DNA of 64,000 bases from an uncultured Gemmatimonadales bacterium. Its GTDB lineage: Bacteria > Gemmatimonadota > Gemmatimonadetes > Longimicrobiales > RSA9. Both the position numbers and the translations under genes were made by a program. The stretch lies in assembly GCA_963708135.1 (NCBI GenBank), contig OY970192.1, positions 992,001-1,056,000 on the forward strand. Reading direction: 5' to 3'. Below, piece by piece: positions 23,095 through 30,202 of this stretch. The stretch's first letter is position 1; each line of letters opens with the position of its first letter. The notes under the pieces are model-generated. The model made no database searches. It saw only the letters and a program-made list of their open reading frames with translations, and was not told where the DNA came from.

Positions 23095-23547
23095 ATGGAG
23101 GAACGCCAGAGCGCCCGGGAGGGCATCCGCGATGGGATCCGCGCCGGGATCGGGATCCTCGCCGCCTTCAAGGATGCCGTGGAGGAGACCCTGGGTGAGA
23201 TGAAGGAGCGCGGCGACATCTCGCCCGATCGCGCGCGCGAGGCGGTCCGCACCACGATGCAGCGGGCGCAGGAGGCGATGGACGAGGCTCGCGAGCGGCT
23301 CGATTTCGTGCCGCGTCGCGAGTTCGATGTGCTGCGCCAGGAGGTGGCGGAGCTGCGCCGCCGGCTCGAGGCCCACACCGGCGGCGCAGCGGAAACCGAG
23401 GCGACGGATGCAGCCGCGAGCGCGGCCCGAGCGCCGCACGCCCGTGCGCCCGACACGCCGCCCGCGAACGGTCCGGCCGCCGGGGCCGGCGAGGCGGCCG
23501 TGAGCACGCCTCCGAACATCCAGGTCGAGGAGGACACCACGGGGTGA
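23095..23547 (+). CDS. phasin-like coiled-coil protein
   Basis: GIGILAAFK...EMKERGDISPDRARE...FVPRREFDVLRQEVAELRRRL; SD GGAGG. Confidence 0.7.
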   Translation: MEERQSAREGIRDGIRAGIGILAAFKDAVEETLGEMKERGDISPDRAREAVRTTMQRAQEAMDEARERLDFVPRREFDVLRQEVAELRRRLEAHTGGAAETEATDAAASAARAPHARAPDTPPANGPAAGAGEAAVSTPPNIQVEEDTTG

Positions 23548-24305
23548 GCGCGCCCCGTGCCGTGAGCGAGGTGAGCTGTCCGGGTGAGCTGCCGCTGTAC
23601 GTGCACCCGGAATGGCACGAGCGCTTCCCCTGGCTGGTGCAGGGCACGACGGGGCGGGGAGAGGGGGCGGAACCGTTCGACCTGCGCATGTTCGGCGACA
23701 TCCCGTCGGGCCTGCTGCTGGAGCGCTGGGCCGCGCTCCAGCGCGCGCTCGGCTGTGCGCGCGCCGTTCACGCGCACCAGGTCCACGGCGCGCGCGTACT
23801 GGTTCACCAGGGCGGGCCGGCCGGGCTGCTCATCGCCGAGGGCTGCGACGGCCACGCCACGCAGACCGCCGGCGTGCTCCTCACCGTTTCCGTGGCCGAC
23901 TGCGTTCCCATCTTCCTGGTGGACCCCGAGCGGCGGGCGATCGCGGCGCTGCACGGCGGGTGGCGCGGCGTCGCGGCCGGCATTCTCGAGTCCGGCATCG
24001 AGGCGCTCGGGCGCCAGGCGGGTACGCCGCCGGCGGATCTGTACGCCCATTTCGGGCCGGCGATCTGCGGCGCCTGCTACGAGGTCGGGCCGGAGGTCTT
24101 TCGGGCGCTGGGGCTTGCTGCGCCGCGGGGCCTGGCGTCCGTGGATCTGCGCCGTGCGCTCGCGGAGCGCGCCGTCGCCGCCGGCCTCGAGGCGGAGCGG
24201 CTCACCATCTCCAGCTTCTGCACCCGCTGCGGCGACACCCCGTTCTTCTCGCACCGCGGAGGGTGCCCGGAGCGGCAGATGGGCGTTCTCGGCCTGCGGC
24301 CATGA
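23544..24305 (+). CDS. pgeF: PgeF/YfiH family (peptidoglycan editing factor / purine nucleoside phosphorylase)
   Basis: HQVHG, VADCVP, LHGGWRG, GPAICGACYEVG, FFSHR. Confidence 0.9.
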   Translation: MSAPRAVSEVSCPGELPLYVHPEWHERFPWLVQGTTGRGEGAEPFDLRMFGDIPSGLLLERWAALQRALGCARAVHAHQVHGARVLVHQGGPAGLLIAEGCDGHATQTAGVLLTVSVADCVPIFLVDPERRAIAALHGGWRGVAAGILESGIEALGRQAGTPPADLYAHFGPAICGACYEVGPEVFRALGLAAPRGLASVDLRRALAERAVAAGLEAERLTISSFCTRCGDTPFFSHRGGCPERQMGVLGLRP

Positions 24306-24520
24306 GCGGTGAGGCGCCACCGGGCCTGTGCGGCTCGTGCGTGCACGCGCGCGTGATCGAAACCCGGCGCGGCTCCCGGTTCTACCATTGCCGCCTCTCG
24401 CTGCACGATCCACACTACCCGCGTTATCCCAGACTGCCCGTGCTGCGGTGCGCGGGCTACCAGTTACCTGCGGGTGGCGGGGCAATGCCCCCGGCCGCCA
24501 GGGAGGATCCCCATGAGTGA
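24302..24520 (+). CDS. 72-aa four-cysteine miniprotein (not called as such in the ORF track)
   Basis: ATGA overlap with pgeF stop; GLCGSCVH...FYHC...YPRYPRLPVLRCAGY; overlaps next start. Confidence 0.75.
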   Translation: MSGEAPPGLCGSCVHARVIETRRGSRFYHCRLSLHDPHYPRYPRLPVLRCAGYQLPAGGGAMPPAAREDPHE

Positions 24521-24977
24521 GCCCTTCTACACCGCCCGCGCCAGCATCGCCAAGCTCGGCGGCACCCACAGGCGCGCCCGCCTGGAGTCCGGCGCCACGG
24601 TCGAGTTCGGCGTGCACGGTGCCGTCAAGCGCCACTTCGGGCTGGAGGACCAGCCCGACCTGCCGCTTCCCGTCGATTTCATCGTGGCTGCCACCGGCGC
24701 CTGAATGCTGGGGACCCTCAATGGCGCGCTGGAGGCGCGCGGGATCAGGCTCGAGCCGGATGCGATCGCGGCCGGGGTGGAGGGAACCAACGAGCTGCTC
24801 GAGGGGATCATCACGCTCACGCGGATCCACGTGCACTACACGCTGCGGATCCCGGCGGGCACGCGCGAGGCCACGGATCGGGCGCTCTCGCGTCACCAGG
24901 AGAAGTGCCCGACCGCGCACAGTCTACGCCGCGCCGTGGCCATCGACTGGAGCGCGGACGTGGTCGAGGCGGGCTGA
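24513..24977 (+). CDS. OsmC-like protein, probable selenoprotein (Sec at TGA 24702-24704)
   Basis: Two track ORFs in one frame separated only by TGA; ...FIVAATGA-U-MLGT...HQEKCPTAHSL matches OsmC two-Cys layout; SD GGAGG before ATG 24513. Confidence 0.85.
24699..24750 (+). promoter_or_regulatory. candidate bacterial SECIS element
   Basis: GCGCGC-TGGAG-GCGCGC (24724-24740) starting 19 nt after TGA; basal pairing GCCTGA (24699-24704) with TCAGGC (24745-24750). Confidence 0.65.
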
Positions 24978-25143: not shown

Positions 25144-25632
25144 ATGTCGCACGATTCGCTCGAACCGCGCATAGAGGCCCGCGTCGCGACGCTGGGCTTC
25201 GAGCTCGTGGAGCTCGAGCGGGCGGGCTCACGGACGAGACCCGTCCTGCGAATCCGGATCGACAGGCCGGACGCTGAGCCGGGCCACGGCATCACCCTGG
25301 AGGACTGCGCCGGCGTCAGTCGGGCGCTCGAATCCTTCCTCGAGGAGGATGAGGCGCTCGGCGCGAGATACGTGCTGGAGGTTTCCTCGCCGGGGCTCGA
25401 GCGGCCGCTCGTGCGCAAGCGCGACTTCGAACGCTTTGCCGGCCGGGAAGTGGCCCTCAAGGGCTACGCGCCGCTGGCGGGCCGGAGCCGCCGGCTCGAG
25501 GGCGAGCTGCTGGGATTGGAGGGAGAAGGCGAGGCGGCGCGGGTGCGCCTGCGCCTGGATGACGGAGAGACCGTGAGCGTGCCGAGGGGCGAGATCGCCC
25601 GCGCGCACCTCATCTTTCGGTGGGATCGCTAG
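25144..25632 (+). CDS. rimP: ribosome maturation factor RimP
   Basis: LRIRIDR, ITLEDC, YVLEVSSPGLERPL. Confidence 0.95.
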   Translation: MSHDSLEPRIEARVATLGFELVELERAGSRTRPVLRIRIDRPDAEPGHGITLEDCAGVSRALESFLEEDEALGARYVLEVSSPGLERPLVRKRDFERFAGREVALKGYAPLAGRSRRLEGELLGLEGEGEAARVRLRLDDGETVSVPRGEIARAHLIFRWDR

Positions 25633-25677: not shown

Positions 25678-27102
25678 ATGACGAACGCGACCCAGATCAT
25701 GGCGGCGTTCCGCGAGATGATCGCGAACAAGAACCTGTCCACGGCGGACCTCCACGATCTCATCAAGGACGGGATCATGGCGGCACTCGGGCGCCGCTAC
25801 GGCCCGAACGTGGCCGCCGAGATCGAGATCAGCGAGGACGGCGGCGAGATGCGCATCGTCGTCCTGAAGGAGGTCGTCGAGGAGGTCGAGGATTCCTCGC
25901 GCCAGATCTCGCTCGAGGAGGCCCGCTGGGACGACCCCGACTTCCAGCCGGGGGACGTGCTGGAGATCCCCGTCGATTTCGCGGACTTCGGCCGCAACGC
26001 CGTCATGGCCGCAAAGCAGCGGATCATCCAGCGCGTGCGCGAGGGCGAGCGCAACAAGATCCGCGACGAGTACGCGGACAGGGTCGGAGAGCTGCTCTCG
26101 GGCGAGGTGCAGCAGGTCGAGCGCGGCAAGATCGTCGTGATGCTGAACAAGACGCGCGACGCCGACGCCATCATCCCGTGGAAGGAGCAGAACCCGCGGG
26201 AGCGGTTCCGGCAGGGCGAGCCGATCCGAGCGGTGCTGAAGCGAGTGGAGGAGACGCCCAAGGGGCCGCGCCTGATCCTCTCGCGCGCCGCGCCGGAGTT
26301 CGTAGCGGCGCTCTTCAGGCTGGAGGTCCCCGAGATCTACCAGGGCATCGTGGACATCAAGGACATCGCGCGCGAGGTCGGCGGCCGCACGAAGCTCGCA
26401 GTCTCCTCGCGGGACGAGTCGATCGACCCCGTCGGCGCCTGCGTCGGCCTCAAGGGCTCGCGCGTGCAGGCGGTGGTCAGCGAGCTGGGTGGCGAGCGCA
26501 TCGACATCGTGCCGTGGCACCCGGATCCGGAGATCTATGCGCGGCGGGCGCTGTCTCCCGCCAAGGTCGCCAAGGTGATCAGCGACTCGGCGCGGCGTGT
26601 CATTACGGCCATCGTGGACGAGGACCAGCTCTCGCTCGCCATCGGCCGCAACGGACAGAACGTTCGCCTTGCCAGCCAGCTCATCGGCTGGCAGATCGAC
26701 CTCTACGGCAGCCGTGAGTGGCTCGAGCGCGGCGCGGATGCGGCGCTGTTCGGCGGCGGAGAGCCGGAATACGAGGTCGCGGACTTCCCCATCACCGAGC
26801 TGTCGATTGCGCCGGCCATACTGGCCGCGTTGCAGAACGCGGGGTATAATACCTTTCTGGATATCATCGACCTCGATCGCGACGACCTGCTGAAGGTGCC
26901 CGGCATCGAGGCCGAGCAGGCGGACGAGGTGCTCCGCGTGATCGACGAGCTCACGGTCGAGGAGGGCGAGTCCGAAGCGGCGCCGGCCGGCGCCGGGCCG
27001 AGCGAGGCGGAGCTGGCCGACGCACGACAGGTCGCGGCCGAGATTCTCGGCTTGAGCCTGCCGGGCGCAGCGGGGTCGAAGGAGGATGAGAGCGCCGGCT
27101 GA
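25678..27102 (+). CDS. nusA: transcription factor NusA
   Basis: FGRNAVMAAKQ, S1 and KH domains, GACVGLKGSRV, AIGRNGQNVRLA. Confidence 0.97.
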   Translation: MTNATQIMAAFREMIANKNLSTADLHDLIKDGIMAALGRRYGPNVAAEIEISEDGGEMRIVVLKEVVEEVEDSSRQISLEEARWDDPDFQPGDVLEIPVDFADFGRNAVMAAKQRIIQRVREGERNKIRDEYADRVGELLSGEVQQVERGKIVVMLNKTRDADAIIPWKEQNPRERFRQGEPIRAVLKRVEETPKGPRLILSRAAPEFVAALFRLEVPEIYQGIVDIKDIAREVGGRTKLAVSSRDESIDPVGACVGLKGSRVQAVVSELGGERIDIVPWHPDPEIYARRALSPAKVAKVISDSARRVITAIVDEDQLSLAIGRNGQNVRLASQLIGWQIDLYGSREWLERGADAALFGGGEPEYEVADFPITELSIAPAILAALQNAGYNTFLDIIDLDRDDLLKVPGIEAEQADEVLRVIDELTVEEGESEAAPAGAGPSEAELADARQVAAEILGLSLPGAAGSKEDESAG

Positions 27103-27469: not shown

Positions 27470-30202
27470 ATGCGCGTCTACGAGGCAGCGAAGGAATTCA
27501 ACATCACGGCGGAGCAGCTGATCCAGTTGCTGCGCGGGATGGGTGTGCAGGTCCGCACGGAGGCGTCCACGGTCGATGCTGCCGCGGTGGCCAAGATCCG
27601 CGCGCGCTTCGAGCGGGAGCGCCGGGTCGGCCACATGGACGCCGGCGAGGCGATCGAGGCCGTCATGGAGGACGCGCAGGAGACGCGTCGCCGCCGGCGT
27701 CGCCGCACGGCGCAGGAGGTGGCGGCCGCGCGCGCCGAGGCCGAGGCGACGGAGGTCGCGGAGACCGAGGCGGAGGTGGGCTCGACGGCCGATGTGGTGG
27801 CCGACGCGGCGGATGCGCTGGCGGCCCAGGCGGCGGAGTGGGCCGCGGACCGGGGTGCCGATCTGGTGACGAAGGGCGGCGAGGAGCCGACCGGGAAGAC
27901 GATCTTCGTCGAGAGCCCCGGGATGGAGGCAGAGCCGGAAGAGGAGGCGGAGGAGGAGGAAGAGGGGGTTGCCGCGGAGGCGGCGGAGGCCGGTCCGGTC
28001 GCCGAAGGGGTGGAGGTGGGGGCCGAGGAGGAGGAGGAGGTCGAAGGCGAGGAGCCGGAGGCGCCCACAGAGGCACAGCCGGCGGCGGCTGCGATCAAGC
28101 CGTCGGATCGGCCGCGGCTGCGGCGGGCGGCCGAGGTGCTCAGCCGGCAGCGGCCGGCGGCGCCCGCGCCGGCGGCGAGTGCGGCGCCGGGCGGGCAGGT
28201 GCGCATCCAGGCCGAGGGCTTCACGCCCGATGGACGGCGCAAGAAGGAGAAGGGCAAGAAGAAGAAGCGGCGCGTCGACCAGGAAGCGGTGCAGGAGAAC
28301 ATTGCGCGCACCATGGCGGAGATGAAATCCGGCGGCAAGAAGCGCCGGCACCGCCGTGAGGAGGCGCCGAGCCGCGTGGAGCGGGAGGCGGAGCGCCTGC
28401 GCAGCGAGGCGGAGGCCGCCCAGCAGGTCCGGGTGAACGAGTTCCTGACGCCGGCGGAGCTCGCGGAGCTGATCGACCGCAGCCCGACGGAGATCGTGGC
28501 GAGCGCCTTCAAGAATCTGGGGCTGATGGTCACGATCAACCAGCGGCTGGATTTCGACCAGATCGAGCTGCTGCTGGACGAGTTCGGGTTCCAGGCGGTC
28601 CGTGAGGAGGAGTACGGCGCGGAGGTCGAAGAAGACCTGGAGGTCGAGGAGACGGCGGAGGACCTGGTCCCGCGGCCGGCGGTGGTGACCGTGATGGGTC
28701 ACGTGGACCACGGCAAGACGTCGCTGCTCGACCACATCCGCAAGACGAACGTGATCGCGGGCGAGGCGGGCGGCATCACGCAGCACATCGGTGCCTACCA
28801 CGTCAAGCTGGCGGACGGCCGCTCGCTGTCCTTCCTGGACACGCCGGGGCACGCGGCGTTCACCGCGATGCGCGCCCGCGGCGCGGAAGTGACCGACATC
28901 GTGATCCTGGTGGTGGCGGCGGACGACTCGGTCATGCCGCAGACGATCGAGGCGATCAGCCACGCGAAGAACGCGGGCGTGCCGCTGGTGGTCGCGGTGA
29001 ACAAGACAGACCTGCCGGGCGCGAACCCGACGCGGGTCAAGCAGGAGCTGCTGAATCACGGTGTGGTGGTGGAGGAGTTTGGCGGCGAGGTGCTGAGCGC
29101 CGACGTGAGCGCGAAGAAGGGCACCGGGATTCAGGACCTGATCGACAAGATCCTGCTGCAGGCGGAGATGCTGGACCTCAGGGCGAATCCGCATCGGCAC
29201 GCGCAGGGCACGGTGATCGAGGCGCAGCTCGACGTCGGCAAGGGTCCCGTGGCGACGGTGCTCGTGACGAACGGCACGCTGCGCGTCGGCGACGCGTTCG
29301 TGTGCGGCCTCTACGACGGCCGCGTGCGCGCGCTGCTGGACGAGCGGGGCAACCACATCGAGGAGGTCGGCCCCGGCGAGCCGGCGCAGATCCTCGGCAT
29401 CTCGGGCGTGCCACAGGCGGGGGACGCGCTCGTGGCCATGGACGCGGACCGCGCCTCCGAGATCTCGCAGACGCGGCAGCGGCTGGACCGCGAGAAGCAG
29501 CTGCGGATCAAGAGCCGCGGCGTGAAGCTGACCGACATCAGCAAGCTGCTGGCGGAGGGCGAGACGGCGCAGCTGAACCTCGTCATCAAGGGCGATGTGG
29601 ATGGCTCGGTGCAGGCCCTGTCGGACGCGCTCGAGCAGCTGTCCACGGGCGAGGTGCAGGTGCAGGTGATCCACCGCGCGGTGGGCGCCATCAACGAGTC
29701 GGACGTGCTGCTCGCCACCACGGCCGGCGCGATCATCATCGGCTTCCACGTGCGTCCCGACACGAACGCCCGAAACGTGGCCGTCCGCGAGGGCGTCGAT
29801 ATCCGCCTCTACGATATCATCTACGAGGCGGTCGAGGACGTCCGCAACGCGCTCGAGGGGCTGCTCCAGCCGGGGGAGAAGGAGGTCCTCCTGGGCGTGG
29901 CCGAGGTGCGGCAGCTCTTCAAGGTGCCGCGGATCGGTACGGTGGCCGGCTGCTACGTGCAGGAGGGGATCATCGACCGACGGGCGCGCATCCGCGTGGT
30001 GCGCAATGCCGTGCAGGTCTACGAGGGCGAGCTGGCCAGCCTCAAGCGCTTCAAGGATGATGTCCGCGAGGTGCGCGAGGGTTTCGAGTGCGGCCTCAAC
30101 ATCGCCGGCTACAACGACCTCAAGATCGGCGACAGCATCGAGTGCTATCGCGTCGAGGAGTTCGCCCGCACGCTGGCCGGCGCCGCCGGCGAGGGGGCCT
30201 GA
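27470..30202 (+). CDS. infB: translation initiation factor IF-2
   Basis: [26 protein letters not shown]; long acidic N-terminal linker. Confidence 0.98.

Follow-up and report, generated by a model that had tools for sequence, protein, structure and literature searches.

A gene of OsmC/Ohr fold interrupted by an in-frame TGA in a Gemmatimonadota genome is probably a mis-split selenoprotein gene

Does the TGA at 24702-24704 end a gene, or is it a codon inside one? The window, by which we mean the whole stretch of 64,000 nucleotides that was analysed, contains two ORFs, 24474..24704 (76 aa, counted from a GTG) and 24705..24977 (90 aa), which lie in the same frame and have this TGA as their sole interruption. 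Translated with TGA as U, the locus yields a single product of 154 aa that contains ...AATGAUMLGTL... and ...HQEKCPTAHSL. With a probability of about 0.93, we conclude that 24513-24977 is an intact gene of OsmC/Ohr fold in which UGA is read as selenocysteine by means of a downstream SECIS hairpin, and that its product is, by analogy, a thiol (selenol) peroxidase.

The whole gene (24513..24977, + strand) comprises 154 codons, with selenocysteine as codon 64, and ends at a true stop, TGA 24975-24977 on the same strand. We took ATG 24513 as the start, and not GTG 24474, because an N-terminus of the MSEPFY type is common to 30 orthologues. Read from the sequence, a Shine-Dalgarno motif, GGAGG, lies at 24502..24506 (+), 6 nt 5' of this ATG. 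The in-frame TGA for U64 (24702..24704, +) coincides with the first catalytic Cys of the family, the peroxidatic one, while the TGC codon of Cys132, the second, resolving catalytic Cys, is found within a CPTA motif at 24906..24908 (+). An earlier sequence-only reading of the window had described the same layout of two ORFs in one frame split only by TGA 24702-24704, with the same Shine-Dalgarno motif before ATG 24513 and a joined product of 154 aa, and both the sequence and the ORF list bear it out. All of its coordinates were correct, including those of a hairpin and of a GCCTGA/TCAGGC complementarity that we return to below.

The read-through product was compared with known families by profile and by structure. 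The Pfam OsmC model (PF02566) matched residues 50-146 with 48.2 bits against a gathering cut-off of 27.5, so that the match crosses the TGA. An AlphaFold2 model built from 18 sequences reached a mean pLDDT of 95.3 and placed U64 inside helix 53-75, and a Foldseek search of the PDB returned Ohr/OsmC crystal structures as its best matches (E about 3e-9, TM up to 0.78-0.86). A score above the Pfam threshold, the OsmC fold and two redox residues, one on the central helix and one in a C-P motif, together place the protein in the OsmC/Ohr superfamily. In this superfamily the first catalytic Cys is peroxidatic and the second resolving. If the TGA encodes the catalytic residue, it should align with a conserved Cys, as the sequence-only reading had proposed to check, and it does: in an alignment with 17 full-length homologues from databases, the residue opposite the TGA is Cys in 16/17 and Trp in 1/17 (P0014). 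A profile of the homologue alignment also retrieves Thermus thermophilus OsmC (1ukk), in which U64 corresponds to the Cys of AGCF, the first catalytic Cys, and C132 to the Cys of GCPV, so that both redox residues of the family are matched. C132, P133, T134 and A135 are invariant in the alignment with the 17 homologues, and the Cys-form homologues are single proteins of 152-157 aa.

These features bear directly on the possibility that the locus holds two small genes, with translation stopping at TGA 24702-24704 and restarting at ATG 24705 to produce a 63-aa peptide and a 90-aa OsmC fragment. An ATG does follow the TGA directly in the host genome, gene callers do deliver the 90-aa piece (P0009, and hundreds of entries of 89-101 aa), and selenocysteine insertion at UGA is always accompanied by some competing termination (PMC4513850). 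However, ATG 24705 lacks a purine-rich Shine-Dalgarno sequence upstream, and in 17/30 orthologues the codon after the TGA is CTG, CTA or CTC, which is not a start. The 90-aa piece would be missing the first catalytic residue along with half of the fold, the Pfam match runs across the proposed boundary, and the Cys forms are not divided at this point. Two separate genes are, on this evidence, a very improbable account of the locus. Codon-position entropy across the 30 orthologues is 0.71/0.59/1.28 upstream of the TGA and 0.68/0.64/1.23 downstream, indicating that the segment 5' of the TGA is translated and that both halves are under equal purifying selection.

The in-frame TGA is widely conserved. 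An orthologue was found in 30 genomes of 60 relatives at 43-68% identity, and exactly one in-frame TGA occurs at the same column in 30/30 loci, made up of 29 orthologues at 51-68% identity and the window's own copy. In a sample of the phylum comprising 401 genomes, 113 had a match at E <= 1e-10, and the in-frame TGA was present in 150/150 among the matches listed, which take in a second, paralogous clade described below. Scanning a single genome from each species with an alignment of Cys forms returned 75 loci, labelled Gemmatimonadota, Longimicrobiales, Ca. Eisenbacteria and Acidobacteriota, with TGA in 74/75 and TGC in 1/75, and a metagenome scan with a Cys form returned 19 loci, with TGA in 17/19 and TGC in 2/19. 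The codon in relatives is thus TGA and not TGC or TGT, which settles in favour of recoding a comparison that the sequence-only reading had suggested, with the limit that relatives share ancestry and the counts of TGA, like those of the hairpin, are not counts of independent events. Four unpublished genomes (G015, G016, G019 and G038) are included in the tallies of orthologues, selA and the neighbouring 72-aa ORF among the relatives. When two of them, G016 (locus L030) and G019 (locus L033), are dropped, the TGA and a fully paired hairpin (6/6) are still present in 28/28 orthologues, and each type of covariation in the set containing these two genomes also occurs in other loci.

Two further observations were made in these searches. 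First, C-terminal-only matches with no stop inside were seen in two relatives (G009:C33:38878-39141 and G014:C7:1339476-1339682, starting from about residue 67 or 84). Second, a paralogous clade of OsmC-like proteins, at 34-47% identity, likewise has one in-frame TGA, located in the equivalent column (GGU-L-x-GT), with L128:191-646, L129:157-621 and L130:213-692 as examples. Many relatives have this second Sec paralogue; a query with the window protein did not find it in the host genome.

A bacterial selenocysteine codon should be followed by a SECIS element, and a hairpin is present 3' of this TGA. The putative SECIS upper stem-loop spans 24724..24740 (+), with a stem of GCGCGC/GCGCGC (24724-24729/24735-24740) and an apical loop UGGAG (24730-24734), in which U-G 24730/24734 may form a seventh pair. 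The stem begins 19 nt 3' of the TGA. Across 30 orthologues, which align without gaps, the six stem pairs are standard in 180/180 cells. Covariation is seen at 3/6 pairs, where GC is replaced by AU in 12 sequences (with one GU intermediate), CG by GU in 2 and GC by CG in 1. The covariation score was reached by 0/500 column shuffles, registers slid along the alignment were only 3-74% paired, and RNAalifold predicted the same stem together with the closing U-G pair. The covariation joins synonymous and non-synonymous sites, since the third base of Ala72 (G/A) tracks the second base of Ala/Val75 (C/U), and in codons 71-77 third-position entropy is lowered to 0.21-0.97, compared to about 1.25 for the gene.

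A pattern search recognised 117 TGA loci among 123 loci, and 105 of these were distinct genes, of which 102/105 have 6/6 pairs and the other three 5/6. When synonymous codons were resampled according to the genes' own usage, leaving the peptides unchanged, the expected number with 6/6 pairs was 8.0 on average and 18 at maximum. The loop is UGGAG in 82 of the distinct genes, UGGAA in 13 and another sequence in 10, and it starts with UGG in 102/105; the full motif GCGCRC UGGAG GYGCGC occurs in 76/105, so that stem and loop are almost invariant across phyla. The spacing between UGA and stem is likewise invariant, with zero gaps needed in any locus. Conservation of the hairpin, another check put forward by the sequence-only reading, therefore holds in pairing (180/180), in covariation and in excess over the constraint imposed by the protein (102/105 compared to 8.0).

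The Cys-form loci (n=3) have 6/6, 4/6 and 1/6 pairs, and UCGAG replaces UGGAG in two of them; this fits a relaxed constraint after loss of selenocysteine. Two TGC forms, L052 from genome contigs and L134 from a metagenome, keep the GALEVR peptide and have the loop UCGAG, with the stem of L134 at 4/6. This remnant of the hairpin looks like a SECIS fossil left after replacement of Sec by Cys.

Not every measure of structure was informative. The folding energy of the segment 24696-24755 was -24.1 kcal/mol, with a z of -0.16, and 87/200 dinucleotide shuffles folded as well. Single-sequence folding says little here because the DNA is GC-rich, and we therefore relied on covariation and the synonymous-codon control. 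An Rfam scan of the whole window returned zero families at gathering score, with no bacterial SECIS match. A possible lower helix (24699..24750, +), formed by GCCTGA 24699-24704 and TCAGGC 24745-24750, would enclose the upper stem-loop and include the UGA, and it appears in both the MFE and the centroid fold of the host sequence. As a family-wide feature it was rejected, with 65% of cells paired across the 30 orthologues. Of the SECIS proposed in the sequence-only reading, then, the upper hairpin stands, being conserved with compensatory changes, while the lower helix is real in this sequence but is not a conserved feature.

We then asked whether the host could decode UGA as selenocysteine. 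The host genome is a single contig of 5.45 Mb that is 97.65% complete, and it contains selA (573 bits), selB (319 bits), selD (382 bits) and tRNA-Sec (69.7 bits; called by ARAGORN as tRNA-SeC, anticodon tca). The selB product is encoded by a 694-aa ORF with GTP_EFTU, SelB beta-barrel, SelB-wing_2 and SelB-wing_3 domains, the last two being the SECIS-binding winged-helix domains. All four genes score above their cut-offs in the same genome; the search for sel genes that the sequence-only reading had recommended thus recovered selA, selB, selD and selC, the gene of tRNA-Sec, from a nearly complete single contig. The selA gene lies about 13.6 kb beyond the end of the window. The selD gene (G000:C1:4174852-4175766, - strand, L010) is itself a selenoprotein gene, with an in-frame TGA at HGAGUACK and two GC-rich hairpins 3' of it. 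Across genomes, a selA match is present in 31/31 that have the TGA form, host included, one of these matches being a contig-end fragment below the cut-off. The TGA form occurs in 0/15 genomes that have no selA match, namely all 12 genomes of family f3 and three f1 genomes that are incomplete; as these genomes are kin, the nesting is a count and not a statistic.

The same data weigh against the idea that UGA is read here as an ordinary amino acid, either Cys or Trp by a near-cognate tRNA, or through reassignment of the codon. The one database homologue with Trp at the TGA column (P0014) would fit such decoding, but TGA is also the codon at which translation normally stops in the Sec-OsmC gene itself, in the ORF upstream and in many orthologues. 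The genome encodes the complete Sec machinery, the TGA form is nested within the selA-positive genomes, and a covarying hairpin at fixed distance is needed by SelB and not by plain read-through. We give this explanation as little credence as that of two genes. Least credible of all is a pseudogene, recent nonsense mutation or sequencing error, since a lone in-frame stop may resemble a nonsense mutation in one genome but not when it recurs at the same column in 30/30, 74/75 and 17/19 loci, down to about 50% protein identity, with equal purifying selection on both halves. All three explanations are contradicted by the data, and even taken together they keep only a small share of the probability. 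The recoded selenoprotein inferred by the sequence-only reading is supported by the alignment, the hairpin, the sel genes and the conservation of the TGA, and, judged from sequence, the apparent stop is almost certainly decoded as selenocysteine at the catalytic site.

On the reading as a selenoprotein gene, UGA 24702-24704 would not act as a stop. SelB·GTP·Sec-tRNA(Sec), tethered to the mRNA hairpin at 24724-24740, would insert selenocysteine at codon 64. By analogy, Sec64, which occupies the site of the OsmC/Ohr peroxidatic Cys on the long central helix, would attack the hydroperoxide; Cys132 of the CPTA motif would resolve the oxidised Sec64 to form a selenenylsulfide, and a cellular reductant would recycle it. 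We infer the actual incorporation of selenium, the hydroperoxide reductase activity, the substrate and the reductant.

Two closely spaced ORFs precede the gene. The first (23544-24305) encodes a PgeF/YfiH-like Cu-oxidase_4 protein, and the second (24302-24520, +) is a 72-aa ORF with four Cys that shares an ATGA with the end of the pgeF-like gene and overlaps the start of the Sec-OsmC gene by 8 nt. Downstream are rimP (25150-25632), nusA (25678-27102) and infB, encoding an IF-2-like GTPase (G000:C1:1020682-1021305, corresponding to about 28682-29305 of the window). In 32 aligned homologues of the 72-aa ORF the four Cys are invariant (CxxC...C...C), together with GS, YP and LPV motifs. It matched no Pfam or NCBIfam family, its AlphaFold2 model had a pLDDT of 67 with no fold match in the PDB, and in the ESM Atlas it falls into clusters labelled merely 'hypothetical protein'. 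It represents a family of small, uncharacterised proteins that possibly bind zinc. The ORF lies directly 5' of the Sec-OsmC gene in 21/29 of the relatives' loci and in 20/75 public loci, and is present in 54/61 relatives, including genomes without Sec-OsmC, sometimes far from the Sec-OsmC gene. We do not claim it as a dedicated partner of the selenoprotein, because it occurs without Sec-OsmC and is not always adjacent to it.

How has such a gene been annotated so far? The closest database entries fall into two sorts: full-length Cys forms, which are rare, and numerous C-terminal fragments of 89-101 aa, some of them named 'OsmC family protein [Longimicrobiales bacterium]'. The sequence-only reading had expected standard pipelines to split the gene, and databases do store it as C-terminal pieces of about 90 aa under the name 'OsmC family protein'. 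NCBIfam has a model for an 'OsmC-related (seleno)protein', NF041052, but residues 49-145 of the window protein match it only weakly, with 21.5 bits where 95 are required. The NCBI entries carry only the general name because the clade fails this model. Within the host genome no locus passes NF041052, the best scoring 46.3 bits. The Sec paralogues of relatives were also considered as members of the NF041052 family and rejected, with zero matches at E <= 0.01. The OsmC subfamily model TIGR03562 gave 17.3 bits against a cut-off of 85.8. The locus is thus very probably a real selenoprotein gene that annotation has split in two; it belongs to a known kind, but to a subfamily missed by curated models.

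A wider reading seems to us slightly better than an even bet: that the gene belongs to a distinct, uncurated subfamily of OsmC/Ohr proteins that is almost obligately selenium-dependent, occurs in Gemmatimonadota, Ca. Eisenbacteria and genomes labelled Acidobacteriota, includes a second Sec paralogous clade, and has a SECIS whose sequence and 19-nt spacing are near-frozen across phyla. In the loci sampled, there are roughly 30 Sec forms for every Cys form. If this reading is true, the protein would be among the commonest unannotated selenoproteins of soil bacteria, and would provide a natural case of a peroxidase family with Sec, and not Cys, as the default. With hundreds of 89-101-aa fragments deposited as 'OsmC family protein', too few selenoproteins are counted in Gemmatimonadota and neighbouring soil phyla, a shortfall that NF041052 does not make good. 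The finding leaves knowledge of recoding itself unchanged. A peroxidase family with Sec as the rule, Cys as the rare exception and a near-invariant SECIS offers a convenient natural system for studying what an OsmC/Ohr active site gains from Sec and how strictly the sequence of a SECIS is constrained by SelB.

The locus can be compared with known systems at three levels. First, it shares its fold with the two-Cys OsmC/Ohr reductases (Escherichia coli OsmC, 1nye/1qwi; T. thermophilus OsmC, 1ukk; Ohr, 1n2f and 6eb4), and the catalytic positions align, but Sec takes the place of the first Cys and no more than 11-22% of the sequence is identical. Near the N-terminus, the Sec-OsmC clade has conserved GVHG and PLPVD motifs of its own.

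Second, the hairpin resembles bacterial SECIS elements of the E. coli fdhF type in its stem of 6-7 bp, its small apical loop bearing G, and its location within the ORF 3' of the UGA. The SECIS of selD in the same genome is unlike it in sequence and spacing. Published bacterial SECIS models allow a loop G at 27-28 nt. PMC4605307 describes a bacterial SECIS as a stem of 6-8 bp whose loop carries a conserved G at a distance of ~20 nt from the UGA; the stem found here fits this description, whereas the loop Gs lie further away, 27-28 nt after the UGA.

Third, OsmC-like selenoproteins have been known since 2005, when the Sargasso Sea selenoproteome yielded 3 sequences of COG1765 with the motif UxxT (Zhang, Fomenko & Gladyshev 2005, PMC1088965); the existence of Sec-containing OsmC-like proteins in bacteria, which the sequence-only reading had stated, is thus well established. 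This 'OsmC-like protein' family of selenoproteins, from the Sargasso Sea and GOS surveys, is listed in reviews PMC9312934 and PMC13188914, in which Gemmatimonadota has 0 occurrences. A search of the open-access literature found no paper on the present Sec-OsmC clade. As far as the published description extends, the protein is like that family in having the OsmC fold (PF02566), in carrying Sec where a redox Cys would stand, and in the SECIS hairpin with G in its apical loop after the UGA. Compared by motif, it differs from the published UxxT in having U-M/L-L-G-T, that is UxxxT, with Thr at +4.
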